From a phage, in NCBI GenBank assembly GCA_029944565.1, contig GCA_029944565.1_4115.1: DNA of 64,000 bases; one strand, 5' to 3'. Every line of letters starts with the position of its first letter. Within the stretch, counting starts at the first letter, position 1. Both the position numbers and the translations under genes were made by a program. The notes beneath the pieces are model-generated. The model saw nothing but the letters and a program-made list of their open reading frames with translations. It was not told the DNA's origin and made no database searches. Of this stretch, positions 38,018 to 50,417 are shown piece by piece.

Positions 38018-38209
38018 TTAAATTTTATTTCCGATATAGTCCGGTCTATTCTTTTCGGTCATACGCTTTGCTAATGTTTGCATATGGCTTATTGCGTTTA
38101 ATGTGTCTTCCTCCAGGGATGAATCAACATAATCAGGATCATTCTTCACCTTGCAATGATTATGATAGCGTAGTACTGCCAGTACTTTTTTAACTTCTTC
38201 TACTGTCAT
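38018..38209 (-). CDS. hypothetical protein
   Basis: 63-aa ORF, ATGA-coupled to upstream gene. Confidence 0.5.
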   Translation of the reverse strand: MTVEEVKKVLAVLRYHNHCKVKNDPDYVDSSLEEDTLNAISHMQTLAKRMTEKNRPDYIGNKI

Positions 38210-38478: not shown

Positions 38479-38500
38479 AATTTTGTTTCCTTTTAGTATC

Positions 38501-38559
38501 GGGGAGAACTATTCTCCCCTTGATGTAAACTATTATACAGTACTGATATACTTTGTCAA
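38501..38559 (-). promoter_or_regulatory. early promoter (TTGACA-16-TATAAT) plus leader hairpin
   Basis: hairpin ggggagaa-ctat-tctcccc. Confidence 0.7.
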
Positions 38560-38565
38560 ATACTT

Positions 38566-38973
38566 TTATTCGCCCATATAGATTAAGTTATCATCGCCTA
38601 CATAGGGATCGCAAACGTTGATTTCTTCGCAGTACTTCGTGAATACATCGCCATAGTGACCTAAACCACGATCCCAAAAACCAGTTCCGTGACCTTCGCG
38701 GGTAAGGAACAGATCATGACCAGCTTGCTCATAACCGTAATCAATAAACATACCGCGAACTACTTCCAGATCATTACCGTGTTTCTCAATGAAGCGAGAA
38801 CATGCAATCACCGCCGCTTGACGTGCTTCATCAGATAACTCATAATCTTCCAGGTAATCGCCGTTATCATTATGTACAGTACTGAATTGCATAGCTTCAA
38901 TGTAAGCTACAACCATTGCAGCATGATTTTTATCGTTAGTGATGTTCCGAGCGAGATTAGTAGTAGTAGACAT
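38566..38973 (-). CDS. hypothetical protein
   Basis: 135-aa ORF. Confidence 0.6.
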   Translation of the reverse strand: MSTTTNLARNITNDKNHAAMVVAYIEAMQFSTVHNDNGDYLEDYELSDEARQAAVIACSRFIEKHGNDLEVVRGMFIDYGYEQAGHDLFLTREGHGTGFWDRGLGHYGDVFTKYCEEINVCDPYVGDDNLIYMGE

Positions 38974-38994
38974 GATTTTATTCCTTATTGTATT

Positions 38995-39053
38995 GGGGAG
39001 AACTATTCTCCCCTTGATGTAAACTATTATACAGTACTGATATACTTTGTCAA
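38995..39053 (-). promoter_or_regulatory. early promoter (TTGACA-16-TATAAT) plus leader hairpin
   Basis: near-identical copy of 38501..38559. Confidence 0.7.
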
Positions 39054-39056
39054 TAC

Positions 39057-39278
39057 TTAATTACGTTTAAAATGATATGTGCCTTTATCATCCTGTACGC
39101 CCCACACTGATTTACCATCAACACCAGTGAAACCGGATTGTAATTCAATATGGAAACCATTATTATCAACTACAAAAACTTTTTTATTTTCATCCCGATA
39201 ACATTGATATTCTGAATCAACATTAAAGGCCGCATCATTCAGAAGATTGGAAGCGTAAATGCAAGTCATTGTAGTCAT
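39057..39278 (-). CDS. hypothetical protein
   Basis: start MTTMTCIYAS; track ORF extended through leader hairpin. Confidence 0.55.
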   Translation of the reverse strand: MTTMTCIYASNLLNDAAFNVDSEYQCYRDENKKVFVVDNNGFHIELQSGFTGVDGKSVWGVQDDKGTYHFKRN

Positions 39279-39301
39279 GATTTTATTCCTTATTCTTTGA
39301 G

Positions 39302-39360
39302 GGAGAACCATTTCCCCCTCTCGATATAAAACATTATACTTGATTCTAAGTACAATGCAA
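39302..39360 (-). promoter_or_regulatory. early promoter (TTGCAT-16-TATAAT) plus leader hairpin
   Basis: hexamers and hairpin gggagaaccatttccccctc. Confidence 0.65.
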
Positions 39361-39402
39361 GTACTTTTTTAAAAATAGTTTTCAGTACTGAATACTTATA
39401 TA

Positions 39403-39487
39403 ATAGATACATTTATGCACCCTGTGGGTCAGTGAGCTATCTCTCAATGAATATATAATAGCAAAGGGACTGACCGAAGTCAATCCC
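39403..39487 (-). promoter_or_regulatory. conserved intergenic element, copy 2 (promoter TTGACT-17-TATTAT inside UUCG hairpin, then conserved core)
   Basis: core at 39403-39432; hairpin gggactgac-cgaa-gtcaatccc at 39465-39487. Confidence 0.5.
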
Positions 39488-39501
39488 TTTTTTAATCTTT
39501 T

Positions 39502-40086
39502 TTATCGTGTTATAGTTACGGCTTTTACATCCCGCTTTTTATAGTACTGATTCCAGATATTGCGGGTTAAACCGTAATCAAGTACTTTAATAAGGCCGTT
39601 GCGATCCTGGCCGATATTCTGTTTTCTGATATCTCTTATCGTTAGTGTTGACAGTGTATCATCAACGTGTTGTAGTGCATCAGCAAAGCGGTGCTGGCGT
39701 TCAATTGCATTACGTTTAATATTGTACTTTAATTCGTTGCACGCGTTAACGTGCTTTACACTGCCTTTGCTTGCAGTACTCAACCGATCCATAACGATAA
39801 ACATATTATCAGGATCGCTTAAATGCATATGCACTTTAGCAAAGTACTGTTTCAATTGAGGGCGGTCATAGTCTAAAAAATTCCATACCTTACATTCAGT
39901 TTCATTTTGTTCTACACCCGCATCACAATTGGCGACCTTAATCACTAACCGATCATTTAAAGCGAAAACTATACGGGAAGATCCCGCCCCGATGATCTCC
40001 AGGCCAGCTAACCGACAAGCTGAAAGGATCTCTTTGTTGGTTTCCATTTCTGACAGTGTACGGATGAATTTAGTATAATTACGCAT
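39502..40086 (-). CDS. protein kinase-like protein (putative)
   Basis: glycine-rich loop IGAGSSRIVF then VIKV; catalytic-loop-like NIGQDRNGLIKVLDYG; start MRNYTKF with SD aaggag. Confidence 0.4.
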   Translation of the reverse strand: MRNYTKFIRTLSEMETNKEILSACRLAGLEIIGAGSSRIVFALNDRLVIKVANCDAGVEQNETECKVWNFLDYDRPQLKQYFAKVHMHLSDPDNMFIVMDRLSTASKGSVKHVNACNELKYNIKRNAIERQHRFADALQHVDDTLSTLTIRDIRKQNIGQDRNGLIKVLDYGLTRNIWNQYYKKRDVKAVTITR

Positions 40087-40114
40087 TGCATGTTCTCCTT
40101 GAGTTAATGAAACT

Positions 40115-40143
40115 ATATTACAGTACTTTACTATCAATTGCAA
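40115..40143 (-). promoter_or_regulatory. early promoter (TTGCAA-17-TAATAT)
   Basis: hexamers on minus strand. Confidence 0.5.
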
Positions 40144-40360
40144 CTACTTTTTTAACATTAACGGCGTGGATCACTTCCTTAGTGTTTTTAGTACTGAATA
40201 CTTTCGCCGCTCCTTGTTCGACCGTGATACGATAGCGACCATTAACATCAACCATATTAATAAAGTCCGGCGTGCTGAATGGTGTTGTTTTACATTTCAG
40301 TACTGTTAACAATTCCACCAGCGATGTAGTTTCTTTGATACGTTTTTCTAAAGTAATCAT
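40118..40360 (-). CDS. hypothetical protein
   Basis: 80-aa ORF. Confidence 0.55.
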   Translation of the reverse strand: MITLEKRIKETTSLVELLTVLKCKTTPFSTPDFINMVDVNGRYRITVEQGAAKVFSTKNTKEVIHAVNVKKVVAIDSKVL

Positions 40361-40389
40361 TTTGTTTTTCCCCGTGTTGGTATGTACAT

Positions 40390-40418
40390 ATAGTACTAAA
40401 ACATTTGAGTACTGTCAA
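40390..40418 (-). promoter_or_regulatory. early promoter (TTGACA-17-TACTAT)
   Basis: ~60-bp block duplicated at 40640-40694. Confidence 0.55.
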
Positions 40419-40637
40419 TTAGATAATTGCATATTTCTTTAAAGATAATGCGTCTTGGGTTGGCTGATACTCAATGCCGTTACCGTTATCTACTTTAACT
40501 AATAAACCTTTGTCAATTAGTTTTTTAATAGTCCTTTGGCCTTGTTGAAAATTGGTAAAATGTGAATCATTACGAAAGGTATAACCGTGCTTAACTGCTT
40601 CATCAATAGTTTTCTTTTCGATTTTAGATAATTTCAT
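40419..40637 (-). CDS. hypothetical protein
   Basis: start MKLSKIEKK; track ORF extended upstream. Confidence 0.55.
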   Translation of the reverse strand: MKLSKIEKKTIDEAVKHGYTFRNDSHFTNFQQGQRTIKKLIDKGLLVKVDNGNGIEYQPTQDALSLKKYAII

Positions 40638-40665
40638 TTTGTTTCTCCCGTGTTGGTATGTGTAC

Positions 40666-40694
40666 ATAATACTAAAACAATTGAGTACTGTCAA
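40666..40694 (-). promoter_or_regulatory. early promoter (TTGACA-17-TATTAT)
   Basis: duplicate of 40390..40418 block. Confidence 0.55.
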
Positions 40695-40945
40695 CGTGAT
40701 ATTAGTTTTATTTTCTTATTATATTGTTGGTGTTCATATAGGTTTATCTTTCCTGTGTTCTCAATTACTATTCTGTTGTTAGTGTCTACATCGATTACAC
40801 GCAGTTTTCCGTTGCTTAACTTCCTTGGTAATAGGTTACCATTAATAAACTCATTAGCAAGCTGTACGGCCTTTGTGATGATTCTCTGTGGTGCTTTATA
40901 GTGTACCCGCAAGATATTATCTTTAGATAGTTGTACCTTAATCAT
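40691..40945 (-). CDS. hypothetical protein
   Basis: 84-aa ORF. Confidence 0.55.
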   Translation of the reverse strand: MIKVQLSKDNILRVHYKAPQRIITKAVQLANEFINGNLLPRKLSNGKLRVIDVDTNNRIVIENTGKINLYEHQQYNKKIKLISR

Positions 40946-40959
40946 TTTAGTTTATCCTA

Positions 40960-40986
40960 TAAAAAAGGCGGGAACTGATCCCGCCG
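40960..40986 (-). terminator. rho-independent terminator
   Basis: hairpin ggcggga-actga-tcccgcc followed by UUUUUU on minus strand. Confidence 0.55.
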
Positions 40987-41007
40987 TGTTGTTAGTACTG
41001 CAAGTTA

Positions 41008-41403
41008 TTAGATAACCTGGCGGCGTTTACTGTATACTGTTACACGATTACCCTTACGGTCGTGTCGGATCTCTTTCTGGTTGCGTACCAGTTCACTTGG
41101 ACGCTTAAGGTTTGCCAGGTGATCCGCGTGAGTCCAAGCGGTATGGTTTGTCTGTACTTTGATATCAGAATCAGCGATAAATTCATCTTGTGCGTTAAGT
41201 ACTGCCGCCAGTAAATCCGCTCGTTTTAGTTCTGCTGCTGTTAGTACTGGCTCCGGTGAATTCACGATATCAGAGATTTCTTTGAACTGTACGGCCCAGC
41301 GTTGACCTTTCGGTGCATCTTTGCCCATGTCTTTAAATGCTGCTCCTTCCTCGCGTGCAACAATACGGGCAGCTTCACGGGTAGCGTAGAATTTAGTAAT
41401 CAT
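41008..41403 (-). CDS. hypothetical protein (paralog of 52725..52991)
   Basis: shared YATREAARIAAR, FKDMG, DRKGNRVTVY; start MITKFYATRE. Confidence 0.6.
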   Translation of the reverse strand: MITKFYATREAARIVAREEGAAFKDMGKDAPKGQRWAVQFKEISDIVNSPEPVLTAAELKRADLLAAVLNAQDEFIADSDIKVQTNHTAWTHADHLANLKRPSELVRNQKEIRHDRKGNRVTVYSKRRQVI

Positions 41404-41447
41404 GGTATACATCCTATTAGTTGAGTTAGTACTACAAGTTAGAGTCT

Positions 41448-41476
41448 ATTATAAAGTACTATCTGGGCAATGTCAA
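41448..41476 (-). promoter_or_regulatory. early promoter (TTGACA-17-TATAAT)
   Basis: perfect hexamers. Confidence 0.65.
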
Positions 41477-41498
41477 ATAGTACTTTAAATGGATTCTA

Positions 41499-41822
41499 TT
41501 ACATGTCTTTCTTACGTTTTACATCGTTGTATCGAACTGTTATTTCTTTGTTAATCTCTTTTTCGATGCGGTGAATAACTTTTTCTTTCGGGTTGAAACC
41601 TATAACGGTTTCTTTAATGATCTCCAAGCCCGTGTATTCGCCTTGTGTGCCGTAACCGTATGTAAAGGTTTCATGTCCCAGGTCTTCCCAACGATCACCA
41701 ATTAACGCAGACACGTAGCAAGAGTGGTAAGTATTGCCGTGTGAATCAGTCCACCGATTAACTTTAATGTCAAAGGAGGTTACAATTTTCAGTTCTACTT
41801 TCTGGGCAAGGATCATAGCCAT
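41499..41822 (-). CDS. hypothetical protein (paralog of 48459..48782)
   Basis: shared RWTDSxGNTYHSC, FTYGY, DVKRKKD; start MAMILAQ. Confidence 0.6.
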   Translation of the reverse strand: MAMILAQKVELKIVTSFDIKVNRWTDSHGNTYHSCYVSALIGDRWEDLGHETFTYGYGTQGEYTGLEIIKETVIGFNPKEKVIHRIEKEINKEITVRYNDVKRKKDM

Positions 41823-41844
41823 TTTTATTTCTCTCTCTTTGTTA

Positions 41845-41907
41845 GGAGGGGAACCGTTTCCCCTCACTTGATGTAAACTATTATACAGTACTAAGATACT
41901 TTGTCAA
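41845..41907 (-). promoter_or_regulatory. early promoter (TTGACA-16-TATAAT) plus leader hairpin
   Basis: hairpin gaggggaaccgtttcccctc. Confidence 0.7.
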
Positions 41908-41910
41908 TAC

Positions 41911-42093
41911 TTATTTTTTGGAAAGTTTACGCATTAATTCTACGCTTTCTTGTGAACGTTTTGCTACCTGGCAAGCTGCATGGACAGTAAACATTTTTGT
42001 ATAGTCTGACGGTTTGCCACCGAACCGAGCGGCACGTTCACGGGCACTTGGAACTAATACGATTTCTTTCTTACAGATAGTGCATTTAGCCAT
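41911..42093 (-). CDS. small Cys-containing hypothetical protein
   Basis: 60-aa ORF MAKCTICKK... Confidence 0.5.
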   Translation of the reverse strand: MAKCTICKKEIVLVPSARERAARFGGKPSDYTKMFTVHAACQVAKRSQESVELMRKLSKK

Positions 42094-42113
42094 TTTTATT
42101 TCTCTCTCTTTGT

Positions 42114-42176
42114 TAGGAGGGGAACCATTCCCCCTCTCGATGTAAACTATTATACAGTACTAAGATACTTTGTCAA
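42114..42176 (-). promoter_or_regulatory. early promoter (TTGACA-16-TATAAT) plus leader hairpin
   Basis: near-identical copy of 41845..41907. Confidence 0.7.
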
Positions 42177-42179
42177 TAC

Positions 42180-42455
42180 TTAATTATTGTAAATGTCGTG
42201 AATAGTGATAAAGTTTTTACGACCGTAAACCTGCAAATCAATATCAATGTAGTGCTTATCTAGTACATCCTCGACGCTTAACGCGGTGTCGTGGATATCT
42301 TCGTAGAATTGAGGATCTACAATCTTGCTTAAGTCATCCGGCGTTAACTCATCGTTAAGCCGTTGAACCGCCTGGATATCTGCTTCACGTTTCCAGTCTT
42401 CCAGGTTAGTAGTCAGTACTTGTTCGATTTCGTTAGCTGTCAGTAGAATCCGCAT
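42180..42455 (-). CDS. hypothetical protein
   Basis: 91-aa acidic ORF. Confidence 0.6.
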   Translation of the reverse strand: MRILLTANEIEQVLTTNLEDWKREADIQAVQRLNDELTPDDLSKIVDPQFYEDIHDTALSVEDVLDKHYIDIDLQVYGRKNFITIHDIYNN

Positions 42456-42488
42456 TTTAATGTTTCCTTATCAGTGGTTGATGTAAGT

Positions 42489-42516
42489 ATTATACTCGTT
42501 TACTTTCTATTGTCAA
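42489..42516 (-). promoter_or_regulatory. early promoter (TTGACA-16-TATAAT)
   Basis: proximal of three tandem promoters. Confidence 0.6.
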
Positions 42517-42604
42517 ACTATTTTATCAGGGGAGGTTTTCTTATGTCTTACTCCTGGACTACTTAACGGGGTTACTTGTTTCGTTCCCCGTCCTGATGTA
42601 AAAT

Positions 42605-42632
42605 ATTATACTTGATTCTAAGTACAATGCAA
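42605..42632 (-). promoter_or_regulatory. early promoter (TTGCAT-16-TATAAT)
   Basis: second tandem promoter; 70-nt leader with hairpin acgggg-N14-ccccgt. Confidence 0.55.
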
Positions 42633-42662
42633 GTACTTTTTAAAAATAGTTTTCAGTACTAG

Positions 42663-42670
42663 CCACCAGC
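42663..42670. other. Chi octamer (CCACCAGC)
   Basis: exact 8-mer next to conserved element. Confidence 0.5.
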
Positions 42671-42675
42671 AAACA

Positions 42676-42755
42676 ATAGATACATTTATGCACCCTGTGG
42701 GCTGATTTGTTTCTATGCGTATATAATAGCAAAGGGACTGACCGGAGTCAATCCC
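42676..42755 (-). promoter_or_regulatory. conserved intergenic element, copy 3 (promoter TTGACT-17-TATTAT inside hairpin, then core)
   Basis: core at 42676-42704; hairpin gggactgac-cgga-gtcaatccc. Confidence 0.5.
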
Positions 42756-42769
42756 TTTTTCAATTATTT

Positions 42770-42919
42770 TTAAACTTGTTTCGGGTTGCGATAGGTGATA
42801 GCGTTCGGGTACATTTGTTTAATGTTATTCCATGCCTGGTTAACATTGTAACCACTTGAGCGAATCAGTTGGTTGCTACCGACACCTTGAAACACTACTT
42901 CGAATAAGAATTCTTTCAT
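42770..42919 (-). CDS. small hypothetical protein (~49 aa)
   Basis: ATGA-coupled to upstream small ORF; below ORF-track cutoff. Confidence 0.35.
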   Translation of the reverse strand: MKEFLFEVVFQGVGSNQLIRSSGYNVNQAWNNIKQMYPNAITYRNPKQV

Positions 42920-43092
42920 GCTTTCACCTCGCTATCTTCTTTACCTTTACGCCAGGACATTACTAATTGTTCGCGTTGCCATAAGTCGAGTGATACAAAA
43001 AGTTTTGCGGTATCACTTTTAGGATACTCGCCATTAGTACCTAACCGATAAAACAGATCTTTCAGTACTGATAATTCTACTTGGATCATTTT
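42916..43092 (-). CDS. small hypothetical protein (~58 aa)
   Basis: ATGA-coupled on both sides. Confidence 0.35.
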   Translation of the reverse strand, partial: KMIQVELSVLKDLFYRLGTNGEYPKSDTAKLFVSLDLWQREQLVMSWRKGKEDSEVKA

Positions 43093-43178
43093 ATTACTCC
43101 TGATTGCGTTAATACTTCTACTATTGCATGAATGATCATAAGTACAGCTAAAACAATAATCATCGGATTCATTTGCAT
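43089..43178 (-). CDS. hydrophobic micro-protein (29 aa, MQMNPMIIVLAVLMIIHAIVEVL...)
   Basis: SD aaggag 8 nt upstream; single predicted TM helix. Confidence 0.35.
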
Positions 43179-43195
43179 AAGCTGTACTCCTTATA

Positions 43196-43408
43196 TTAAT
43201 CTTTCAGCCAATGATCTTGAATGAATTTTTCACAGAATCCCTGTTTCATGGATTCTAACAGGCGTTCGCGGTGAGCGTTGGCAAATTGCTCAGTACTATG
43301 CGTTACGCCAGGCTGATAACGTGATACCCCATCCGGTCCGATGTATTGAACATCCCACGGTTTTTCATTAGTATCAGACCATTTACGAACGATTAGTTGA
43401 CCTTGCAT
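43196..43408 (-). CDS. hypothetical protein
   Basis: 70-aa ORF. Confidence 0.6.
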   Translation of the reverse strand: MQGQLIVRKWSDTNEKPWDVQYIGPDGVSRYQPGVTHSTEQFANAHRERLLESMKQGFCEKFIQDHWLKD

Positions 43409-43425
43409 TTTTCTTTCCTCTCAGT

Positions 43426-43485
43426 GGGGAGAATCATTTCTCCCCTTCATGTAACTTATTATACAGTACTAGATTACATTGTCAA
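43426..43485 (-). promoter_or_regulatory. early promoter (TTGACA-16-TATAAT) plus leader hairpin
   Basis: hairpin ggggagaa-tcat-ttctcccc. Confidence 0.7.
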
Positions 43486-43491
43486 TAGTTT

Positions 43492-43815
43492 TTATTCACC
43501 TTGTTTGAATTTAGTTTTCTCCATTGATTCCATGATTGCAACCAATACGCCGTGGATCTCGCTTAACGTGGAATCACTAAAAGCATTAATGAATAGTCGA
43601 TCATTCTCACGAATATTTTTAATGTACTTTTCAGCAGTAGTTGCGAATTCATTCAACGGTAGATCAAATGCTTTATCCCATGATGGATGGCGTAATTGTA
43701 ACAGTACTGGATTATCACGATCACCAGGGGAAAACGTACCAGTGATGAAACATACGCCCGGAATACTTTCGAACTGGCAACGGACTTCCTTTGTGATAGT
43801 AGTATGAATGTACAT
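43492..43815 (-). CDS. hypothetical protein
   Basis: 107-aa ORF. Confidence 0.6.
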   Translation of the reverse strand: MYIHTTITKEVRCQFESIPGVCFITGTFSPGDRDNPVLLQLRHPSWDKAFDLPLNEFATTAEKYIKNIRENDRLFINAFSDSTLSEIHGVLVAIMESMEKTKFKQGE

Positions 43816-43842
43816 TTATTGTTATCCTCTATTAAATTAATA

Positions 43843-44031
43843 TTACAGTTTATGAATCAATTCTTTATCTAAGCGATAGCGTACATTATTAATAGTAACG
43901 GCATTGTTTTTAATGCTACGCTGTACAGGTCCACCAGCAATAACAAACGTTGCTTTATTACCCCGAACAATGATAGCACTTCCAGGATTACCGAAATCAT
44001 CTTGTACTAAAATACTTGATAAGTTTTCCAT
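43843..44031 (-). CDS. hypothetical protein
   Basis: 62-aa ORF. Confidence 0.55.
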   Translation of the reverse strand: MENLSSILVQDDFGNPGSAIIVRGNKATFVIAGGPVQRSIKNNAVTINNVRYRLDKELIHKL

Positions 44032-44050
44032 TTTTTATTTCCTCTTAGTA

Positions 44051-44107
44051 GGGGAAGATGTTTCCCCTTGATGTAAGTATTATAACAGTACTGAAAACTA
44101 AATGCAA
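44051..44107 (-). promoter_or_regulatory. early promoter (TTGCAT-17-TATAAT) plus leader hairpin
   Basis: hairpin ggggaa-gatgt-ttcccc. Confidence 0.6.
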
Positions 44108-44110
44108 GTA

Positions 44111-44467
44111 CTATGATAAAATCATGATAGGATATTCACTATCGATCAGTACCTCGAATCCGAAACCTTCGTACCATTCTTTAAGATTGAAGGCGTTATC
44201 TTCTCCTGTATCGCATTCTAAAATGATACAATCTGAATCATCGGCGGCATCAATAAAGGCATTCATTAATTCGTTACCTTCACCATTGCCCCGACTATCA
44301 GGATCAACATAAAGAGAATCAATAAACGCTACACGGTCATAATCAAGATCCGGTGCAATGATTCCACGTTTAACAAACCAGTACTGCAATTGTGCTACTT
44401 TGCCCTGTACTTGATAGCCAGTGATCTCGCCATTGTCAGTAGTACGCGTGATATGTTGTATTCCCAT
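44111..44467 (-). CDS. GNAT-like N-acetyltransferase (tentative)
   Basis: LYVDPDSRGNGEGNELMNAFIDAA resembles GNAT motif A; by eye only. Confidence 0.3.
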   Translation of the reverse strand: MGIQHITRTTDNGEITGYQVQGKVAQLQYWFVKRGIIAPDLDYDRVAFIDSLYVDPDSRGNGEGNELMNAFIDAADDSDCIILECDTGEDNAFNLKEWYEGFGFEVLIDSEYPIMILS

Positions 44468-44496
44468 GATTTCAATCCTCAGTTAAGATATAAAAT

Positions 44497-44524
44497 ATTA
44501 TACACTATCTTTCAGTACTGTCAA
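44497..44524 (-). promoter_or_regulatory. early promoter (TTGACA-16-TATAAT)
   Basis: perfect hexamers, no leader hairpin. Confidence 0.65.
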
Positions 44525-44530
44525 TACTTT

Positions 44531-44788
44531 TTATCTCATAGATCTATGCCAACAATTACGCGGGGGACGTTTAAAAGTACTATCATGATCCTCCTGGCAA
44601 GTTATGCAGTACTTACATCCCTTAACGGCCTGGCGTCGATTCTCAGGGATTATATCGCCGCAGTCGAGGCAATGTATCAGTGATTCTATTTGTGCGTTAA
44701 TTTGCTTTCTAGCGTGGTTAACGGCGGCCTGAATCACTGCGTTAATCTCGTCTTGTTCGGCCCCATCTTTCGCGAATCCTACAGCCAT
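44531..44788 (-). CDS. TraR/DksA-family C4 zinc-finger protein (putative)
   Basis: CLDCG-N17-CKYCITC spacing (CxxC-N17-CxxC). Confidence 0.5.
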   Translation of the reverse strand: MAVGFAKDGAEQDEINAVIQAAVNHARKQINAQIESLIHCLDCGDIIPENRRQAVKGCKYCITCQEDHDSTFKRPPRNCWHRSMR

Positions 44789-45039
44789 TATTTTAACCTC
44801 ATTATAAAAATACTATAGTACTGTAATGCGACAATAATATTACTTGTTCTTACTTTTTCCAATCCACATGATACCACATATTCATCCCCATATGTGCGAA
44901 ACGATACACCATGAAAATTTTTATACACTTGCACTACTAATCATAACCTTTCGTCTAACCAACTGCATAGAATTATACTACTTTACGCAAATTGATCAAG
45001 TATTGATCAGATCATTTTTTGATCAATATTATACAGTTA

Positions 45040-45115
45040 CATTTGTGCACCCTATGGGTTAGTGACGTTCTCGTCTTGATGTAAGTATTATGCCAGTACT
45101 TGATGATATTGTCAA
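45040..45115 (-). promoter_or_regulatory. orphan promoter (TTGACA-17-CATAAT) with conserved transcribed core, no ORF downstream
   Basis: hexamers at 45087-45115; transcript begins acttacatcaagacgagaacgtcactaacccatagggtgc. Confidence 0.5.
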
Positions 45116-45119
45116 TAGT

Positions 45120-45317
45120 TTATTTTAATTTTTTTCTGTCATTGATTAATGCTTTCAGTACTATACTAATGATTTGCAATGATTCATCAATGACTATAAA
45201 ATTATTCTCTTTCATTAGATGATAGTTACCATTGATTGTATATTCTAAGGAGTACTGTTTACGTTTAATTTTTGATAATGTTTCTATTTGTTTTTGTACT
45301 GATTTCATGCTAATCAT
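45120..45317 (-). CDS. hypothetical protein
   Basis: 65-aa ORF. Confidence 0.5.
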   Translation of the reverse strand: MISMKSVQKQIETLSKIKRKQYSLEYTINGNYHLMKENNFIVIDESLQIISIVLKALINDRKKLK

Positions 45318-45393
45318 TGTTAAACGTCCTGTAACGCATTCTAACGAGATAAACGGTTTAGTACTGGCATTGTATAGGGTAATGAATTAAAGC

Positions 45394-45401
45394 CCACCAG
45401 C
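45394..45401. other. Chi octamer (CCACCAGC)
   Basis: exact 8-mer within hairpin agcccaccagcg... Confidence 0.45.
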
Positions 45402-45422
45402 GTTAACCAGTGGGCTATAATC

Positions 45423-45557
45423 TTACATCTTGCGGATAATCTTAACAGTATCTTTCACCGATTTACCGTCTTGCTGGCATTGCTCGATCATTGCGTATTG
45501 TTCTGCTGTAAGATCCTCGCCAGTTTTTGCCAGTACTGCGTCGATGAATGAATCCAG
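45423..45557 (-). CDS. small hypothetical protein (~44 aa)
   Basis: downstream of promoter 45602..45629; below ORF-track cutoff. Confidence 0.4.
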   Translation of the reverse strand: MDSFIDAVLAKTGEDLTAEQYAMIEQCQQDGKSVKDTVKIIRKM

Positions 45558-45601
45558 TGCGATCATTTTGTTTCTCTCTTAGGTTAAGTTAACTACTGTT
45601 T

Positions 45602-45629
45602 ATAAAACTTATTATACAGTACTATCAAA
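45602..45629 (-). promoter_or_regulatory. early promoter (TTGACA-16-TATAAT)
   Basis: perfect hexamers. Confidence 0.65.
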
Positions 45630-45665
45630 CGTTGTCAATATCTTTAATAGTACTGGTAATATATT

Positions 45666-45845
45666 TTAGCGGTAATCGTCGTATGCTTTATTCACCTGGC
45701 GAATGTAACTTTCAAAGGCTTCGTCTACCGTTTCATACTCCCGAACATAATCACCATAGGAAACTACATACATACCTTTTTGATCTTCAAACGACATGAT
45801 GATAGAATCCAGGCCGATGATTTCAGTTTTTGCGATGATAGCCAT
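45666..45845 (-). CDS. hypothetical protein
   Basis: start MAIIAKTEI with SD aaggaa; track ORF extends upstream. Confidence 0.55.
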   Translation of the reverse strand: MAIIAKTEIIGLDSIIMSFEDQKGMYVVSYGDYVREYETVDEAFESYIRQVNKAYDDYR

Positions 45846-45879
45846 TTTTAATTCCTTAGTAGTGTAGTTGATAAAAGTT

Positions 45880-45908
45880 ATTATGCCAGTACTATCAATC
45901 AGTGTCAA
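45880..45908 (-). promoter_or_regulatory. early promoter (TTGACA-17-CATAAT)
   Basis: same subtype as 45087..45115 and 48826..48854. Confidence 0.55.
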
Positions 45909-45928
45909 TAGTACTGTGATAATATTTT

Positions 45929-46141
45929 TTAGTTAATAATAGTCAGTGTAAAATTGTAATCCCCTGCCTGGTATAGTACTTTATCGCCGAACGTTCCAAC
46001 ACGTTTCATATTGCAATAGATACCCATAACACTTTTTACATCTTTGATATTCCGAACGCCAGTAATATCCTTGTTTAAATGATCGTGATCAGAAAATAAA
46101 ACTTGTTTTGCATTTTTCAGTACAGTGCAGATATTAGCCAT
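45929..46141 (-). CDS. hypothetical protein
   Basis: 70-aa ORF. Confidence 0.6.
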   Translation of the reverse strand: MANICTVLKNAKQVLFSDHDHLNKDITGVRNIKDVKSVMGIYCNMKRVGTFGDKVLYQAGDYNFTLTIIN

Positions 46142-46161
46142 TTTGTTTTCTCTCTGTTAGT

Positions 46162-46221
46162 GGGGAGAATCATTTCTCCCCTTCATGTAACTTATTATAC
46201 AGTACTATAATCTATTGTCAA
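46162..46221 (-). promoter_or_regulatory. early promoter (TTGACA-16-TATAAT) plus leader hairpin
   Basis: hairpin ggggagaa-tcat-ttctcccc. Confidence 0.7.
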
Positions 46222-46235
46222 ACTATTTTTTTATA

Positions 46236-46577
46236 TTATTCGAAATCTTCTGGACCGGACTGATAATCATCTTCACCGTATGCACTTTCTAACTTCTCGC
46301 CAGTGTGATCATCAGTTAGTGAATCATCCTCATAATTCACGTCTACGCCTACAATGTAAAACTGGCTATCGTCTGGATCATTGAAATTAATTTTCTGAAT
46401 GTTTACAATAACTGTATTGATGCCCAGGACACAGCCATCAGCCGTTACAAAGTACTGATAGTTTTCACAACCGCCTGAATTGAAACCGTAATTGATTTCG
46501 GCCCGACCATCATTTAAACGCAGTGCCTGGGCGATGATTTCGTTTTCAAAGTTAGATTGAGCAATTGAGATAGTCAT
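46236..46577 (-). CDS. hypothetical acidic protein
   Basis: 113-aa ORF, Asp/Glu-rich C-terminus. Confidence 0.6.
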   Translation of the reverse strand: MTISIAQSNFENEIIAQALRLNDGRAEINYGFNSGGCENYQYFVTADGCVLGINTVIVNIQKINFNDPDDSQFYIVGVDVNYEDDSLTDDHTGEKLESAYGEDDYQSGPEDFE

Positions 46578-46597
46578 GATTCGTTTCCTTATTACTA

Positions 46598-46656
46598 GGG
46601 GAAACCGTTTCCCCTTTCGATGTAAAACATTATACGCTTATTGAGATAGTTTGCAA
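46598..46656 (-). promoter_or_regulatory. early promoter (TTGCAA-16-TATAAT) plus leader hairpin
   Basis: hairpin ggggaaa-ccg-tttcccc. Confidence 0.65.
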
Positions 46657-46709
46657 GTACTTTTTATCAAATACTTTAAAATAGTTTTCAGTACTCAAAC
46701 ATTATACAA

Positions 46710-46792
46710 TAGATACACTCCTGCACCCTGTGGGCTAGTGAGCTATCTCTCAATGATTATATAATAACAAAATGGCTGACCGAAGTCAACCA
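46710..46792 (-). promoter_or_regulatory. conserved intergenic element, copy 4 (promoter TTGACT-17-TATTAT inside UUCG hairpin, then core)
   Basis: core at 46710-46755; hairpin tggctgac-cgaa-gtcaacca. Confidence 0.5.
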
Positions 46793-46802
46793 CTTTTTTC
46801 AT

Positions 46803-46937
46803 TTATTTTTTAGCTTTAAGTACTGCGGCCTTTCGTGTCATGCCTTGCTTGATGTATTCCTGTACTTTCGCTTTACGTGCTTTAGCTTTATCTGCTTTAG
46901 TTTTAGGAGTACTGTAAACTATACCGTTAGGATTCAT
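46803..46937 (-). CDS. small basic hypothetical protein (44 aa)
   Basis: Lys/Ala-rich; follows stop of upstream micro-ORF directly. Confidence 0.35.
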   Translation of the reverse strand: MNPNGIVYSTPKTKADKAKARKAKVQEYIKQGMTRKAAVLKAKK

Positions 46938-47027
46938 TTAAATCACCATAAAGAATAGATAGGTTACTAACAACGCCGCGATCAATGCACCGACCAGGGC
47001 CGAACTGTAATAAGCTAAGGATCTCAT
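46938..47027 (-). CDS. hydrophobic micro-protein (29 aa, MRSLAYYSSALVGALIAALLV...)
   Basis: ATGA overlap with 47024..47176; single predicted TM helix. Confidence 0.35.
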   Translation of the reverse strand: MRSLAYYSSALVGALIAALLVTYLFFMVI

Positions 47028-47176
47028 TTTTTAGCCTGAAAATAATGTTTAATTTGTGCGGCGGTCAGTGCACAATTACGCAGGAAGTTTTCTGTATAAC
47101 TGCGGCGAGTATTAAAAGAGAATTGACCTTTACCGTTACCGATAGTTACATCCATCCGAGCGTTGTATTGTTTCAT
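47024..47176 (-). CDS. small hypothetical protein (50 aa)
   Basis: start MKQYNARMDV with SD aggag; track ORF extended through leader hairpin. Confidence 0.5.
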   Translation of the reverse strand: MKQYNARMDVTIGNGKGQFSFNTRRSYTENFLRNCALTAAQIKHYFQAKK

Positions 47177-47194
47177 TTTGTATCTCCTGTTATC

Positions 47195-47254
47195 GGGGAG
47201 AATCATTTCTCCCCTTCATGTAAAACATTATACAGTACTAAAAACTAATTGCAA
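47195..47254 (-). promoter_or_regulatory. early promoter (TTGCAA-16-TATAAT) plus leader hairpin
   Basis: hairpin ggggagaa-tcat-ttctcccc. Confidence 0.65.
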
Positions 47255-47257
47255 GTA

Positions 47258-47500
47258 TTATTTTAAACTTTGTGCGACTAATTTCGCACGGTCAATCATA
47301 TACTGCCATTTTTGGATCTCTTCTGGCAGAAAACGATATTCACCAATAACAATAGTGATACACTTTTCAGCTTGGTCAATGTATGTAGTATCAATCTCGA
47401 CTTGAACGGGTACACGTTCGCCGTATTCAGTCCCTGGGATAATGCAATCATTATCATAAGTTACAGTAGTAGTAGTGTCTTTGATTAAAATTGTTTCCAT
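47258..47500 (-). CDS. hypothetical protein
   Basis: 80-aa ORF. Confidence 0.6.
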   Translation of the reverse strand: METILIKDTTTTVTYDNDCIIPGTEYGERVPVQVEIDTTYIDQAEKCITIVIGEYRFLPEEIQKWQYMIDRAKLVAQSLK

Positions 47501-47523
47501 TATACTTTCCTCGTTAGGTGTAA

Positions 47524-47579
47524 GGGGAACGTTTTCCCCTTCATGTAAAACATTATACAGTACTGAAAACTAATTGCAA
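47524..47579 (-). promoter_or_regulatory. early promoter (TTGCAA-16-TATAAT) plus leader hairpin
   Basis: hairpin ggggaa-cgtt-ttcccc. Confidence 0.65.
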
Positions 47580-47779
47580 GTACTTTCCGAAAGTAAATGC
47601 TCATACGCTGCATTAACTACATTTTCAATAACCGACTGTACAGAAAGATCCCCCACGTCCTGGCTATAGTAGAAATTGCTTACAGTGGTGTCATCGTATG
47701 CAAATACTTTACCAGGTACTGCATCAATCACATACATATTAACCTTTAAGATGTCGATCTTATCCTGTACAGTAAGCAT
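47570..47779 (-). CDS. hypothetical protein
   Basis: 69-aa ORF. Confidence 0.5.
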   Translation of the reverse strand: MLTVQDKIDILKVNMYVIDAVPGKVFAYDDTTVSNFYYSQDVGDLSVQSVIENVVNAAYEHLLSESTCN

Positions 47780-47784
47780 ATTAA

Positions 47785-48057
47785 TTAACCTTTTAAGTAC
47801 TGGCTTAAGTAGTCTTTTTGATCTTCGGTGATTGCAGTCATCTTCCCTAGTACTGGATTGATGATATAATCCCCTGTAACGTCCTGTAACGCATTCTCAG
47901 GCGGTTTAACGGCTGGGGTAGCCATAGCCATTGCCTGGACTTGTTCGACGCTGTAACGCTCATAAAGGCGGCATTCTTCCGGTGTTAACATAGCATCAGT
48001 ACGCTTCATCGGTTTAATGATGCTTTCGATCTCATTCAGTACTTGATTAACGTTCAT
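47785..48057 (-). CDS. hypothetical protein
   Basis: 90-aa ORF. Confidence 0.55.
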   Translation of the reverse strand: MNVNQVLNEIESIIKPMKRTDAMLTPEECRLYERYSVEQVQAMAMATPAVKPPENALQDVTGDYIINPVLGKMTAITEDQKDYLSQYLKG

Positions 48058-48108
48058 GGTATAATCCCCAATATAAGCGGCCTAAATCGACCGCTAACGA
48101 TGTTTTGA

Positions 48109-48378
48109 TTAATAGGTGTAAGGTTGACGCTCAAACAATGATTGTACGCTGTACGCCCCGCTAATGGGCTTCGCTGGCAAATCAATTTTATATTGTTCAC
48201 GCTTAAAGATAATAAAACGGCAATTGTTTTTAACATCAAAATTGATTGAACGTTCCAGGAGTTTTCCATCGTGCACAAATACAAGATAACCGCTTGGTAC
48301 TTGTTTTGTAGAACTGGTTGCAACCATAGACCGACGAACATGTGTACCTGCATCGATTAAAGTACTGATATTTTTCAT
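48109..48378 (-). CDS. hypothetical protein
   Basis: 89-aa ORF with SD gagga; preferred over overlapping ORF 48054..48353. Confidence 0.5.
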   Translation of the reverse strand: MKNISTLIDAGTHVRRSMVATSSTKQVPSGYLVFVHDGKLLERSINFDVKNNCRFIIFKREQYKIDLPAKPISGAYSVQSLFERQPYTY

Positions 48379-48458
48379 TTTACTATCCTCTTAAGTTGAT
48401 TTAATTTCTTTCCCCTATGCAGACACTGTATCAAAGTATCTGCATAAAGTAAAGCTAA

Positions 48459-48782
48459 TTAAAGATCTTTTTTACGTTTTACATCCTGTACAGTACAATG
48501 CAACGGGATAGACAAATCATTACACAAACGAGTAAGGGAGGTTTCAACAGTATCAAGCCCGTCTACTGATTCCTTTAAGAGATCAAACGCCGTTTGTTGA
48601 TATGCATCTTCATAGCCATAAGTAAATGATTCAACCGCCAGATCATTCAAACCGTTATCCAGTTCAACGCTTACATGACAAGAATGATAAGTATTGCCAT
48701 ATGAATCAGTCCAACGTTTACCGTCAACATTGATTGCATGGATTGCAGCCAGGGAAACGGTATTGATGATAGTTTTAGCCAT
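48459..48782 (-). CDS. hypothetical protein (paralog of 41499..41822)
   Basis: shared RWTDSYGNTYHSC, FTYGY, DVKRKKD. Confidence 0.6.
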   Translation of the reverse strand: MAKTIINTVSLAAIHAINVDGKRWTDSYGNTYHSCHVSVELDNGLNDLAVESFTYGYEDAYQQTAFDLLKESVDGLDTVETSLTRLCNDLSIPLHCTVQDVKRKKDL

Positions 48783-48825
48783 TTTAGTATTCCTTAAATT
48801 AATATGTGTCGTCTTGATAAAATCT

Positions 48826-48854
48826 ATTATGCCAGTACTATCAAACTATGTCAA
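48826..48854 (-). promoter_or_regulatory. early promoter (TTGACA-17-CATAAT)
   Basis: hexamers on minus strand. Confidence 0.55.
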
Positions 48855-48873
48855 TAGTACTGTGATAATATTT

Positions 48874-49086
48874 TTACTTACTTTCTTTCGCTGCTTTATA
48901 TGTTGCCACTGCCATAACCACATCAGCACGAACAAAGTTTTTAACCGTGTCACTGTAATAATTGATCGCATCATCTATATCTGCGAACGTCCGATACATA
49001 CCGCACCAAGATACTTTATAACCTTCTTTCACTTCTGCCAGTTTAACGATAGTCTTGTTAACTTTGATTTTAGTAATGATAGCCAT
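48874..49086 (-). CDS. hypothetical protein
   Basis: start MAIITKIKV; track ORF extended through leader. Confidence 0.55.
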   Translation of the reverse strand: MAIITKIKVNKTIVKLAEVKEGYKVSWCGMYRTFADIDDAINYYSDTVKNFVRADVVMAVATYKAAKESK

Positions 49087-49105
49087 TTTAGTTTCCTCAT
49101 TATCA

Positions 49106-49164
49106 GGGAGAACCATTTCTCCCCTTGATGTAATGTATTATACTTTATTCGATTTACTTTGCAA
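49106..49164 (-). promoter_or_regulatory. early promoter (TTGCAA-16-TATAAT) plus leader hairpin
   Basis: hairpin gggagaaccatttctcccc. Confidence 0.65.
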
Positions 49165-49173
49165 GTACTTTTT

Positions 49174-49401
49174 TTAATTTAATTCATCCAGGCAAAGGAT
49201 ACGCTCAACGCCCAAATCAGTTAAACTAATCGACGGCACTTGATAGGTTTCAATGTATGCTACACTTGCCCACTGACCGAACTCATTAACGGCCCAGGTA
49301 TTCATTGCATTTTGCAATTCCGCACCTGCCTTGTTAGTAATGACTGCAACTACTTGTTCGTTGCCAGTAGTACCAGATACGCGAGTAATGATAATAGCCA
49401 T
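49174..49401 (-). CDS. hypothetical protein
   Basis: start MAIIITRVSG. Confidence 0.55.
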   Translation of the reverse strand: MAIIITRVSGTTGNEQVVAVITNKAGAELQNAMNTWAVNEFGQWASVAYIETYQVPSISLTDLGVERILCLDELN

Positions 49402-49421
49402 TGTTTTGATTCCTTTGATTT

Positions 49422-49484
49422 GGAAGGAGAACCGTTTCCCCCTCTCGATGTAAAACATTATACGCTAATCTCTTAATCGTGCAA
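49422..49484 (-). promoter_or_regulatory. early promoter (TTGCAC-16-TATAAT) plus leader hairpin
   Basis: hexamers and hairpin ggagaaccgtttcccc. Confidence 0.6.
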
Positions 49485-49549
49485 GTACTTTTTATTACTT
49501 TTTGCAAAATACTTTAAACGCTCTCAATCGCATTCTAACGACCTTAACG

Positions 49550-49557
49550 CCACCAGC
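49550..49557. other. Chi octamer (CCACCAGC)
   Basis: exact 8-mer; partner in opposite orientation at 49612. Confidence 0.5.
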
Positions 49558-49611
49558 TAGGGCGATGTATCAGATAATCAGTTTAATGCGTTAGAATCGA
49601 TTCTAGGCGGT

Positions 49612-49619
49612 GCTGGTGG
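49612..49619. other. Chi octamer (GCTGGTGG)
   Basis: exact 8-mer. Confidence 0.5.
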
Positions 49620-49635
49620 ACTGGAATACTACAGA

Positions 49636-49666
49636 CACAAAAAAGCCCACTGTTTAAGGTGGGCTA
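49636..49666 (-). terminator. rho-independent terminator
   Basis: hairpin agcccac-tgtttaag-gtgggct followed by UUUUUUGUGU on minus strand. Confidence 0.65.
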
Positions 49667-49686
49667 GTGATTCAGTACTTTAATTG

Positions 49687-50169
49687 TTATGCTTCAACTT
49701 TGCGATGAGCTTCGATCCATTCCTCGCGAGTCATACCGCTTTCTTTGATAGCGTCCAGTACTACCGCAATGCAGTTACCGCGTACAGGAATCATATGTTC
49801 TTCCCCGTTATCAAGTACTACAGTAACACGTTCTTGAATCCATTTTTTAGGTTTAGATTCTGGCTTATCTTCACCATACTTAACCGCCAGGGCTTTATGT
49901 GCCATTTCTACAACTACTTCCAGATCCAATCCAGCCACCGCCGCCTGGATACTTTCGATTGTTGCTTGCAGTTCGGCTTCACGGGCTTTTTTCTGTTCTT
50001 CCAGTTCTGCTACCTTTTTGGCTTGCAGTTCTTTAGCTTCACTGTACGCAATGTTAAAATTGTTGCGTACTGCTTTCATGGTATCGTTATCCAGGTCAGC
50101 CAACAATTCAGCAGCAATAACAGTATCGTTTGAAATCAGTGCTTTCAGGAATGATTTTACATTAGCCAT
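49687..50169 (-). CDS. hypothetical protein with central coiled-coil-like segment
   Basis: start MANVKSFLKAL with SD gagga; Ala/Glu/Lys-rich heptad-like middle. Confidence 0.6.
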   Translation of the reverse strand: MANVKSFLKALISNDTVIAAELLADLDNDTMKAVRNNFNIAYSEAKELQAKKVAELEEQKKAREAELQATIESIQAAVAGLDLEVVVEMAHKALAVKYGEDKPESKPKKWIQERVTVVLDNGEEHMIPVRGNCIAVVLDAIKESGMTREEWIEAHRKVEA

Positions 50170-50292
50170 TTTATAAATCCTCAATTAAAGTTTAGTTTAC
50201 GTTTATTAGTGTATCAAAGTTTTATCGACGTGTCCAGTTTTTCGTTCGACTTACTGGCGGTCTACTTAGTGCTCCCCGTCTTGATGTAATAC

Positions 50293-50320
50293 ATTCTACG
50301 CCTTTTTGTGGTAATGTCAA
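50293..50320 (-). promoter_or_regulatory. promoter (TTGACA-16-TAGAAT) with ~110-nt leader
   Basis: leader starts ...catcaagacgg... like other conserved-core transcripts. Confidence 0.5.
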
Positions 50321-50369
50321 CTACTATTTTAAAACTATTTTTAAAGTATGCAGTACTACGATAATACAA

Positions 50370-50401
50370 AAACAAAAAAGCCCACTGTTTAAGGTGGGCT
50401 A
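50370..50401 (-). terminator. rho-independent terminator (identical copy of 49636..49666)
   Basis: same hairpin agcccactgtttaaggtgggct plus U-run. Confidence 0.65.
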
Positions 50402-50417
50402 GTGATTCAGTACTATA

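Follow-up and report, generated by a model that had tools for sequence, protein, structure and literature searches.

A YbiI/TraR-type zinc-finger gene and a mini-GNAT gene, two separate and putatively early neighbours in an Asteriusvirus terminal repeat

Introduction

DksA and TraR inhibit promoters that carry G+C-rich discriminators, such as rrnB P1, and spare those with A+T-rich ones. TraR and its phage homologues bind in RNA polymerase's (RNAP's) secondary channel and reprogram host transcription without ppGpp (PMC9239242, PMC6970531). TraR is built from three elements, N (residues 2-27), G (28-57) and C (58-73) (PMC6970531), and its residues R48 and R49 contact the rim helices and Si3 of the beta-prime subunit (PMC9239242). 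All five phage TraR homologues that were tested bind RNAP, two of them with an incomplete DxxDxA motif (PMC9239242). Gopalkrishnan et al. found lower activity for these two incomplete-motif homologues, and some longer C4 proteins devoid of the motif were inactive (PMC9239242). In E. coli itself, Blankschien et al. reported, as 'data not shown', that overexpression of YbiI rescues dksA auxotrophy (PMC2613031).

Phages also encode N-acetyltransferases of the GNAT superfamily. One of them, Rac, affects transcription in the host (PMC7552054), and it has been invoked as a model for the GNATs of jumbo phages (PMC7824862). Iyer et al. (2017) described a GNAT family within phage polyvalent proteins, found in gammaproteobacterial phages and typically neighboured by an ART domain, and assigned it to the RimI-like, protein-modifying clade (PMC5512222). 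Here, two adjacent genes of a jumbo coliphage are compared with these systems.

Genomic setting and transcription of the locus

The window, that is, the whole stretch of 64,000 nucleotides that was analysed, is by sequence comparison from an Asteriusvirus jumbo coliphage of the PBECO4/121Q type; the 3 kb around both genes share 97-99% nucleotide identity with PBECO4, 121Q, SP27 and vB_Eco_slurp01. The original prediction had placed a zinc-finger gene and a GNAT-like gene side by side, and both open reading frames were recovered at exactly its coordinates, on the minus strand:

44531..44788, minus strand: gene for an 85-aa TraR/YbiI-type C4 zinc-finger protein (open reading frame, Pfam PF01258, PHROG 54, AlphaFold2 and Foldseek)
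44111..44467, minus strand: gene for a 118-aa mini-GNAT N-acetyltransferase (open reading frame, Pfam GNAT models, motif A)
35250..55511, minus strand: equivalent of the direct terminal repeat (DTR), mapped from the ~21.5-kb DTR of vB_Ec-M-J, with an approximate inner boundary

Both genes have a GAGG Shine-Dalgarno sequence upstream of their ATG, and both products are conserved at the protein level across many phages. These two features indicate that they are real genes and not chance reading frames. Identical proteins are already present in GenBank under these family names, and both superfamilies are well known: in ELP-22, ELP22_0043 and 0044 are annotated as 'DksA-like zinc-finger protein' and 'acetyltransferase', respectively, and in 121Q gene 294 is a 'C-4 type zinc finger protein' and gene 295 a 'GNAT family N-acetyltransferase'. 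A PADLOC search returned zero matches for either protein to the known and candidate anti-phage defence proteins of that library. In the Asteriusvirus genome papers, acetyltransferase, DksA, zinc and promoter are nowhere mentioned, and our literature search found no transcriptomic or proteomic data for either gene.

In vB_Ec-M-J the annotated DTR occupies positions 1..21525 (21,525 bp), with the zinc-finger and GNAT genes at 12349-13026, and it contains 53 small genes that all point inward. According to the mapping, the repeat of the window runs in reverse to that of vB_Ec-M-J. DTRs of ~21 kb have been experimentally confirmed in fEgEco12 (PMC13070987), and in a tblastn search the GNAT gene was found twice per record where the genome had been deposited with both repeats. 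The repeat region of the window is an array of ~50 small same-strand genes, many of them with consensus sigma-70 promoters, which together suggest an early or host-takeover region. No tRNA genes are present in the 64-kb window. Outside this repeat, the window holds a further large same-strand array (160-26541), in which a paralogous-family test detected relatedness in only 6 of the 35 ORFs; none of the ten ORFs scanned there gave an above-threshold Pfam match.

The following elements around the two genes bear on their transcription:

44497..44524, minus strand: predicted promoter serving the GNAT gene alone, TTGACA-16-TATAAT, a perfect match to the sigma-70 consensus
44788..44934, minus strand: 48-aa upstream open reading frame, corresponding to PBECO4 gp253, whose stop codon overlaps the zinc-finger start (TAATG)
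44972..44999, minus strand: promoter-like site, TTGATC-16-TATAAT, with only a 10/12 match to the consensus, before this leader reading frame and the zinc-finger gene

The 48-aa reading frame is probably, to judge from its sequence, the first cistron of the zinc-finger transcript. The -35 hexamer of the GNAT promoter starts 6 nt past the stop codon of the zinc-finger gene, and read-through from the zinc-finger gene into the GNAT gene is likely because there is no intervening terminator. The window holds 13 perfect sigma-70 promoters, all but one of them on the minus strand, with the consensus AAAGTATTGACAA-N8-TAGTACTGTATAATA; a G+C stem-loop and a ribosome-binding site often come next. It is proposed that both genes would be read early by the host sigma-70 RNAP from consensus promoters. 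An early, host-directed role seems reasonable because the genes lie in a sigma-70-driven early region of the terminal repeat and because phage homologues of TraR bind RNAP (PMC9239242).

Within this promoter consensus lies the hexamer AGTACT, which occurs 259 times in the 64 kb, ~12 times the expectation, while CAGTAC/GTACTG is over-represented 13-fold. Just ~57 of the AGTACT cores precede a -10-like hexamer, and within genes the density of 3.3 per kb is still about tenfold over expectation. A search of the literature on this motif in jumbo phages found nothing relevant.

The zinc-finger protein

The CxxC-N17-CxxC signature put forward in the original prediction is present as C40-L-D-C43, 17 residues and C61-I-T-C64, a spacing identical to that of TraR (C37xxC40-N17-C58xxC61). 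The TraR/DksA-type zinc finger is borne out by Pfam zf-dskA_traR (PF01258), with an E-value of 5.4e-11 and 42.7 bits against a gathering cut-off of 24.9, and the PHROG 54 family 'DksA-like zinc-finger protein' is matched at 1.8e-18. At the level of subfamilies, the best relative in the PDB is E. coli YbiI (2kgo), with an E-value of 2.9e-12 over residues 1-74, followed in rank by TraR with 1.6e-5 over residues 18-71. The same order is found among the NCBIfam models, although every specific cut-off is missed: the YbiI equivalog (NF008243/PRK11019) ranks first with 81.7 bits over residues 1-72, below its cut-off of 96, the TraR subfamily TIGR02419 reaches 51.3 bits against 59.7, TraR (NF010268) 30.4 bits against 108, and DksA_like 14.2 bits against 105. 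By these scores YbiI is a closer relative than either TraR or DksA, and the protein is not classifiable as a TraR or a YbiI equivalog. Identity with DksA itself was ruled out by the 85-aa length, the single helix and the 14.2-bit score.

The homologues fall into two groups. The first consists of phage proteins of 84-87 aa that are 62-98% identical and all end in FKRxPRNCWHRSMR; they come from Asteriusvirus and from T4-like phages (among them Citrobacter phage Moon, Yersinia phages MHG19 and fHe-Yen9-01, and Escherichia phage JS10), and this conserved tail was found in 169 phage records. The second group comprises 88-aa proteins with 42-52% identity that have the length of E. coli YbiI and its GYNRRGSKDSQLR tail. 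The basic tail of the protein studied here, FKRPPRNCWHRSMR, stands where the YbiI equivalog has GYNRRGSKDSQLR. Among 44 homologues, M1, A2, G4, G9, Q12, R27, the four cysteines, I47, R51, R52, G57, Q65, D69 and R77 are invariant, and K7, D8 and A10 almost invariant. Besides the zinc site, the best-conserved part is the N-terminal tip (M1, A2, G4, K7, D8, G9, A10 and Q12). New here, on sequence grounds, are the incomplete tip motif and the assignment of the protein, whose tail is phage-specific, to the YbiI branch.

An AlphaFold2 model built from 44 sequences is of moderate confidence only (pLDDT 74, pTM 0.42). It predicts an N-terminal helix (7-31), a zinc knuckle (38-61), a C-terminal helix (62-71) and a disordered tail, an architecture that, as modelled, matches the three elements of TraR. 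In Foldseek, YbiI came first (4.3e-5), then TraR bound to RNAP (6n57_M, E-value 1.2e-3, TMt 0.53), followed by DksA in RNAP complexes as a weak fold match. The R51-R52 pair aligns with R48-R49 of TraR, and the distance from D8 to the first cysteine is 32 residues, compared with 31 from D6 to C37 in TraR. The DxxDxA tip is present only in its DxA half (F5-A-K-D8-G-A10), with F5 in place of the first aspartate; phenylalanine or tryptophan occupies this position throughout the YbiI-like subfamily.

The most likely mechanism, by analogy, is binding in the secondary channel. The protein would bind host RNAP in the manner of TraR and lambda Orf73: the one N-terminal helix would insert into the channel with the tip K7-D8-G9-A10 leading, the zinc knuckle with R51-R52 would be seated on the beta-prime rim helices and Si3, and the short C-terminal helix would contact the beta lobe. 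The expected outcome would be a ppGpp-independent inhibition of the promoters of rRNA and ribosomal-protein genes, with phage promoters spared through their A+T-rich discriminators. In the window, the discriminators of the early promoters are indeed A+T-rich (e.g. AGTTTAC and ATTTTAT), so that a TraR-like factor would be expected to leave these promoters uninhibited.

Given that only half of the tip motif is present, that YbiI is the closer relative and that the specific NCBIfam cut-offs are missed, we infer RNAP binding by comparison with characterised homologues and not from family membership. The same features leave room for a YbiI-like protein that does not bind RNAP and has another role, for example in metal-linked regulation or in nucleic-acid binding through its basic tail with cysteine and histidine, a possibility that we consider unlikely though it has to be taken seriously. 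The closest relative, YbiI, sits in an iron-metabolism operon (PMC2613031), some C4 homologues of intermediate length lack DksA-like activity (PMC9239242), and the conserved phage tail is a separate feature of its own. Against such a role, the modelled helix length and architecture are TraR-like, the arginine pair is invariant and the D-x-A tip is conserved. Binding in the secondary channel is favoured because the homologues with a partial motif retained RNAP binding (PMC9239242), overexpressed YbiI is reported to rescue dksA auxotrophy (PMC2613031), and R51-R52 and the spacing are kept.

The GNAT protein

For the second gene, the motif-A-like segment of the original prediction corresponds to R59-G-N-G62-E-G64, which fits the Q/R-x-x-G-x-G/A pattern and lies in the model between a strand (45-54) and a helix (63-74); a motif-B segment is formed by N91..W98-Y99-E-G-F-G-F. 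Membership of the GNAT family is upheld by Pfam Acetyltransf_1 (E-value 4.1e-9 and 37.2 bits, with the cut-off at 20.7), in a match that spans positions 53-116 of 116 and covers the C-terminal half of the profile only. Acetyltransf_7 (33.5 against 27 bits) and Acetyltransf_10 (26.3 against 23.6 bits) also exceed their cut-offs, again over the C-terminal half of the profiles. In the structural model one helix and a beta-hairpin precede beta-4, and about 90 of the 118 residues superpose on GNAT cores. By fold comparison, too, the modelled protein is a GNAT. The N-terminal arm, which is beta1-alpha1-alpha2 in canonical GNATs of ~160 aa, looks reduced in the model as in AcrVA5. Profile and fold comparison thus agree in linking the two products to the DksA/TraR and GNAT families, respectively.

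A word-index protein search gave just two GNAT clusters and almost nothing beyond the genus, and it was an exhaustive HMMER search that revealed the family: 290 cluster representatives at E<=1e-3, mostly of 117-140 aa and aligned over the full length. Across this family G64, W98 and Y99 are invariant, and G17, Y18, R59, G62, D86, E89, F93, F104 and P113 nearly so. Since motif A and the motif-B segment are intact, nothing points to a dead enzyme. The stand-alone homologues lie in phage-like arrays of small genes in the contexts examined, and longer homologues are fusion proteins of 400-2300 aa. One of these combines the GNAT domain with ART-PolyVal and NUDIX (P0122), another with PARP/ART and ParB_N (P0075) and a third with Amidoligase_2 (P0127), and two carry DUF5661 (P0087 and P0188). 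By sequence, the 118-aa protein matches the polyvalent-protein GNAT family, a link that is new here, and its structural likeness to AcrVA5, as modelled, is likewise added here.

AcrVA5 was absent from the best 60 PDB sequence-profile matches of the 118-aa protein. To our knowledge, E. coli has no type V-A CRISPR system, and the target of AcrVA5 therefore cannot be that of this protein. Identity with Rac (gp28 of phiKMV-like phages) was also considered and rejected, as there was no sequence similarity to the Rac-bearing phages at E<=1e-3.

On these grounds we infer acetyltransferase activity and a protein substrate. The gene, an accessory one carried on a promoter-bounded cassette, would encode an N-acetyltransferase that depends on acetyl-CoA and belongs to a mini-GNAT family borne by phages. 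Its most likely function, as far as the sequence indicates, is to acetylate a host protein early in infection, which could be either a target of takeover or a defence protein. A substrate other than a host protein, either a small molecule or an aminoacyl-tRNA, appears rather improbable. The candidates would be polyamines, aminoglycoside-like antibiotics or, as in GNAT toxins, charged tRNA. Such a substrate would be in line with PDB sequence matches that include phosphinothricin, puromycin and aminoglycoside acetyltransferases, and with weak, sub-threshold NCBIfam matches to AAC(6'), ArsN and Sat4, yet these scores are far under the family cut-offs. One homologue (L004) adjoins a CCA-adding enzyme and lies near RtcB, but this neighbourhood of tRNA enzymes is found in that homologue only. 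Protein substrates are indicated by the ART and ParB_N fusions and the RimI-like clade (PMC5512222), and the protein acetyltransferases AcrVA5, Naa50/60 and RimI are among the closest structural matches. Acetylation of a host protein hence remains the preferred reading for the GNAT gene.

Independence of the two genes

The original prediction had read the two genes together, as a joint modulation of host transcription or acetylation of a host target. This part found no support: the GNAT gene sits on a cassette that is absent in PBECO4, it has a promoter of its own, and its homologues at 13 other loci are not paired with a zinc-finger gene. The cassette is delimited as follows:

~44097..44513: GNAT cassette of 417 bp, present here and missing in PBECO4 by pairwise alignment

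The gap in PBECO4 comprises the GNAT gene, most of its promoter and a short 3' flank, and the sequences on both sides are nearly identical. The cassette ends on either side at the repeated AGTACTG motif, within spacers of early promoters, which suggests gain or loss of the cassette by recombination between promoter repeats. A similar recombination between promoter repeats has been described for the PeSL cassettes of T4-type phages.

The same absence appears to extend to at least seven other relatives among the matches listed, all of which keep the zinc-finger gene. With a 3-kb query around the locus, eight records among the matches listed were covered at 86-88%. Seven records at 86-87% (two of PBECO4, four Salmonella phages SD-* and slurp01) fall short by the amount that a lost cassette would account for, and the 25 GNAT-positive records include none of the seven; BF17 is also covered at 86%. 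SHEFM2K, covered at 88%, carries the GNAT gene and has its shortfall elsewhere.

The distribution of the two genes differs widely. By tblastn against 50,697 phage records, the GNAT gene is found in 25, namely 24 of Asteriusvirus type and Klebsiella phage 05F01, versus 968 for the zinc finger, many of them T4-like phages. The T4-like phages with a zinc-finger orthologue gave no GNAT match by tblastn, and the JS10 orthologue is part of the tk-mobD-nrdC early region, where no GNAT lies close to it. Conversely, a zinc-finger HMM found a DksA/TraR gene at none of 13 non-Asteriusvirus loci with a GNAT homologue, over ~5 kb or to the end of the contig. The zinc-finger and GNAT genes are separate, and their adjacency is incidental, a demonstration that is new here. 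A coupled module, in which the zinc-finger protein on RNAP would recruit or cooperate with a GNAT that acetylates RNAP or another transcription factor, is very improbable in the face of the clean loss of the cassette from relatives that keep the zinc finger, the perfect promoter, the 13 loci without a partner, the contrast in distribution and the missing similarity to Rac, and it is left with a slight chance on account of the likely co-transcription of two same-strand genes 63 bp apart with no terminator between them and of VP882 TraR-QisA, a precedent of a TraR partner encoded next door (bioRxiv 10.64898/2026.07.27.740977).

Overall reading and significance

Taken as a whole, the locus is read with moderate confidence as two separate early Asteriusvirus genes, one for a YbiI/TraR-type protein that would bind RNAP and the other for a mini-GNAT that would acetylate a host protein. 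The analysis shows the domain identities and predicted folds, the promoters, where the genes lie and that they are independent of each other. A more far-reaching reading is speculative and, in our estimate, doubtful: the mini-GNAT could be an AcrVA5-like counter-defence that disables an E. coli immunity protein by acetylating it and is spread among jumbo phages as a promoter-bounded cassette of one gene. Separately, the YbiI-type zinc-finger proteins of lytic enterobacterial myoviruses could be secondary-channel regulators of a second class with a mechanism of its own, marked by an [F/W]xxDxA tip and a basic tail with cysteine and histidine.

The zinc-finger protein is a candidate means by which a strictly lytic jumbo phage could reprogram E. 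coli RNAP independently of ppGpp. Many T4-like phages have orthologues, and an answer would have a bearing on what E. coli YbiI does. Compact and confidently modelled, the mini-GNAT belongs to a family tied to polyvalent proteins, for which injection together with the phage DNA is predicted; its target, if found, could reveal a new acetylation-based step of takeover or anti-defence. The practical value is modest, and the finding repeats annotation that exists in GenBank.

Comparison with known systems

With DksA, the zinc-finger protein has in common the Pfam zinc-finger domain, whereas DksA has 151 aa, a two-helix coiled coil and ppGpp-binding residues, compared with 85 aa and one helix here. 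TraR, lambda Orf73, P2 Orf82 and VP882 Orf61 are also small, single-helix C4 zinc-finger proteins of mobile elements. Identity to TraR is ~26%, and the protein has six to seven additional N-terminal residues and a 14-residue basic tail. Unlike these TraR-type proteins, it is encoded by a strictly lytic jumbo phage, and its binding to RNAP is a prediction. YbiI shares with it the MA-G-[FW]-A-K/N-D-G/D-A tip, the C4 finger and the arginine pair at a similar length (88 versus 85 aa). YbiI is chromosomal, while the gene described here is phage-borne and predicted to be early.

Among the GNATs, Rac has its gene in a podovirus genome, at the middle/late boundary, and its effect is genus-specific, whereas the 118-aa protein is encoded in the early region. 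AcrVA5, an anti-CRISPR mini-GNAT (PDB 6iuf), is 22% identical to it and ~25 residues shorter. The polyvalent GNAT is a domain within a large protein for which injection along with the DNA is predicted, while the 118-aa protein stands alone behind a predicted early promoter.

Repeated promoters and motifs

The window carries 13 perfect TTGACA-N16-18-TATAAT promoters, of which 12 lie on the minus strand and 10 have a 16-nt spacer, and they have in common the extended consensus AAAGTATTGACAA-N8-TAGTACTGTATAATAgTTTACAT. A GGGGAG...CTCCCC stem-loop and then a ribosome-binding site are often found 3' of these promoters, and this succession of promoter, stem-loop and ribosome-binding site makes up an early-gene cassette architecture.

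Promoters and motif sites in the window
37035, 38559, 39053, 41476, 41907, 42176; minus strand; perfect TTGACA-N16-18-TATAAT promoters
42516, 43485, 44524, 45638, 46221, 55146; minus strand; perfect TTGACA-N16-18-TATAAT promoters
11894; perfect TTGACA-N16-18-TATAAT promoter
44086-44093, 44379-44386, 44513-44520, 44816-44823; AGTACT motif, example sites

The palindromic hexamer AGTACT is present 259 times in the 64 kb, ~12 times the zero-order expectation, and is usually preceded by C or T and followed by G or A; for CAGTACTR, 173 matches are observed in the window against 4.2 expected. Non-coding DNA has 7.8 copies of the hexamer per kb and coding DNA 3.3, while the stretches at 20-28 kb and 32-36 kb have almost none. 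Just a minority of the AGTACT sites can be put down to promoter use.

Gain or loss of the GNAT gene

Comparison with the close relative PBECO4 demonstrated that a 417-bp segment with the gene of the putative N-acetyltransferase (GNAT), at window 44097-44513, is a presence/absence cassette. Both cassette junctions fall on AGTACTG motifs inside promoter spacers, and in PBECO4 the GNAT promoter's -35 hexamer is fused to the -10 region belonging to the promoter of the following gene. Taken together, the position of the junctions and this -35/-10 join suggest that the GNAT gene was gained or lost through recombination between repeated promoter elements.

Elsewhere, at 6001-7827 of a 97-kb metagenomic phage-like contig, a 132-aa homologue of this mini-GNAT immediately precedes a gene for a CCA-adding enzyme (PolyA_pol), with RtcB ~4 kb from the homologue. 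This is a single instance of a tRNA-repair neighbourhood.

The zinc-finger gene and its surroundings

The C-terminal 27 residues of the TraR/YbiI-type zinc-finger protein (window 44531-44611) include the tail ...FKRxPRNCWHRSMR, with a conserved Cys and a conserved His. This tail is kept across jumbo and T4-like phages alike, in 169 records, and gives a match to PHROG 25948, a family of 54 positions whose function is unknown. In the T4-like phage record EP02SG the match is limited to residues 60-85, which suggests a truncated remnant. Upstream lies a small ORF:

44788-44934; minus strand; 48-aa ORF ending in TAATG and overlapping the zinc-finger start codon

This ORF is annotated as gp253 in PBECO4, and a shorter version of it is annotated in the relative ELP-22. 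The PBECO4 RefSeq record holds the zinc-finger gene with its sequence intact and without annotation.

Other loci and the terminal repeat

A run of ~35 same-strand ORFs of 150-224 aa each occupies window 160-26541 on the minus strand. Paralogy was detectable by BLASTP for only six of them (9633, 10873, 16234, 16664, 17593 and 18065, all minus; median identity 39%), and a Pfam scan of 10 ORFs from the run gave nothing that reached the threshold.

The stretch at window ~35,250-55,511 is the counterpart of the ~21.5-kb direct terminal repeat of the related phage vB_Ec-M-J, and the left physical end of vB_Ec-M-J falls at window 55,511. The ~1.7 kb nearest this end (about 53,750-55,511) is without annotated genes, and CAGTACTG motifs are clustered in it at 54143-55172.
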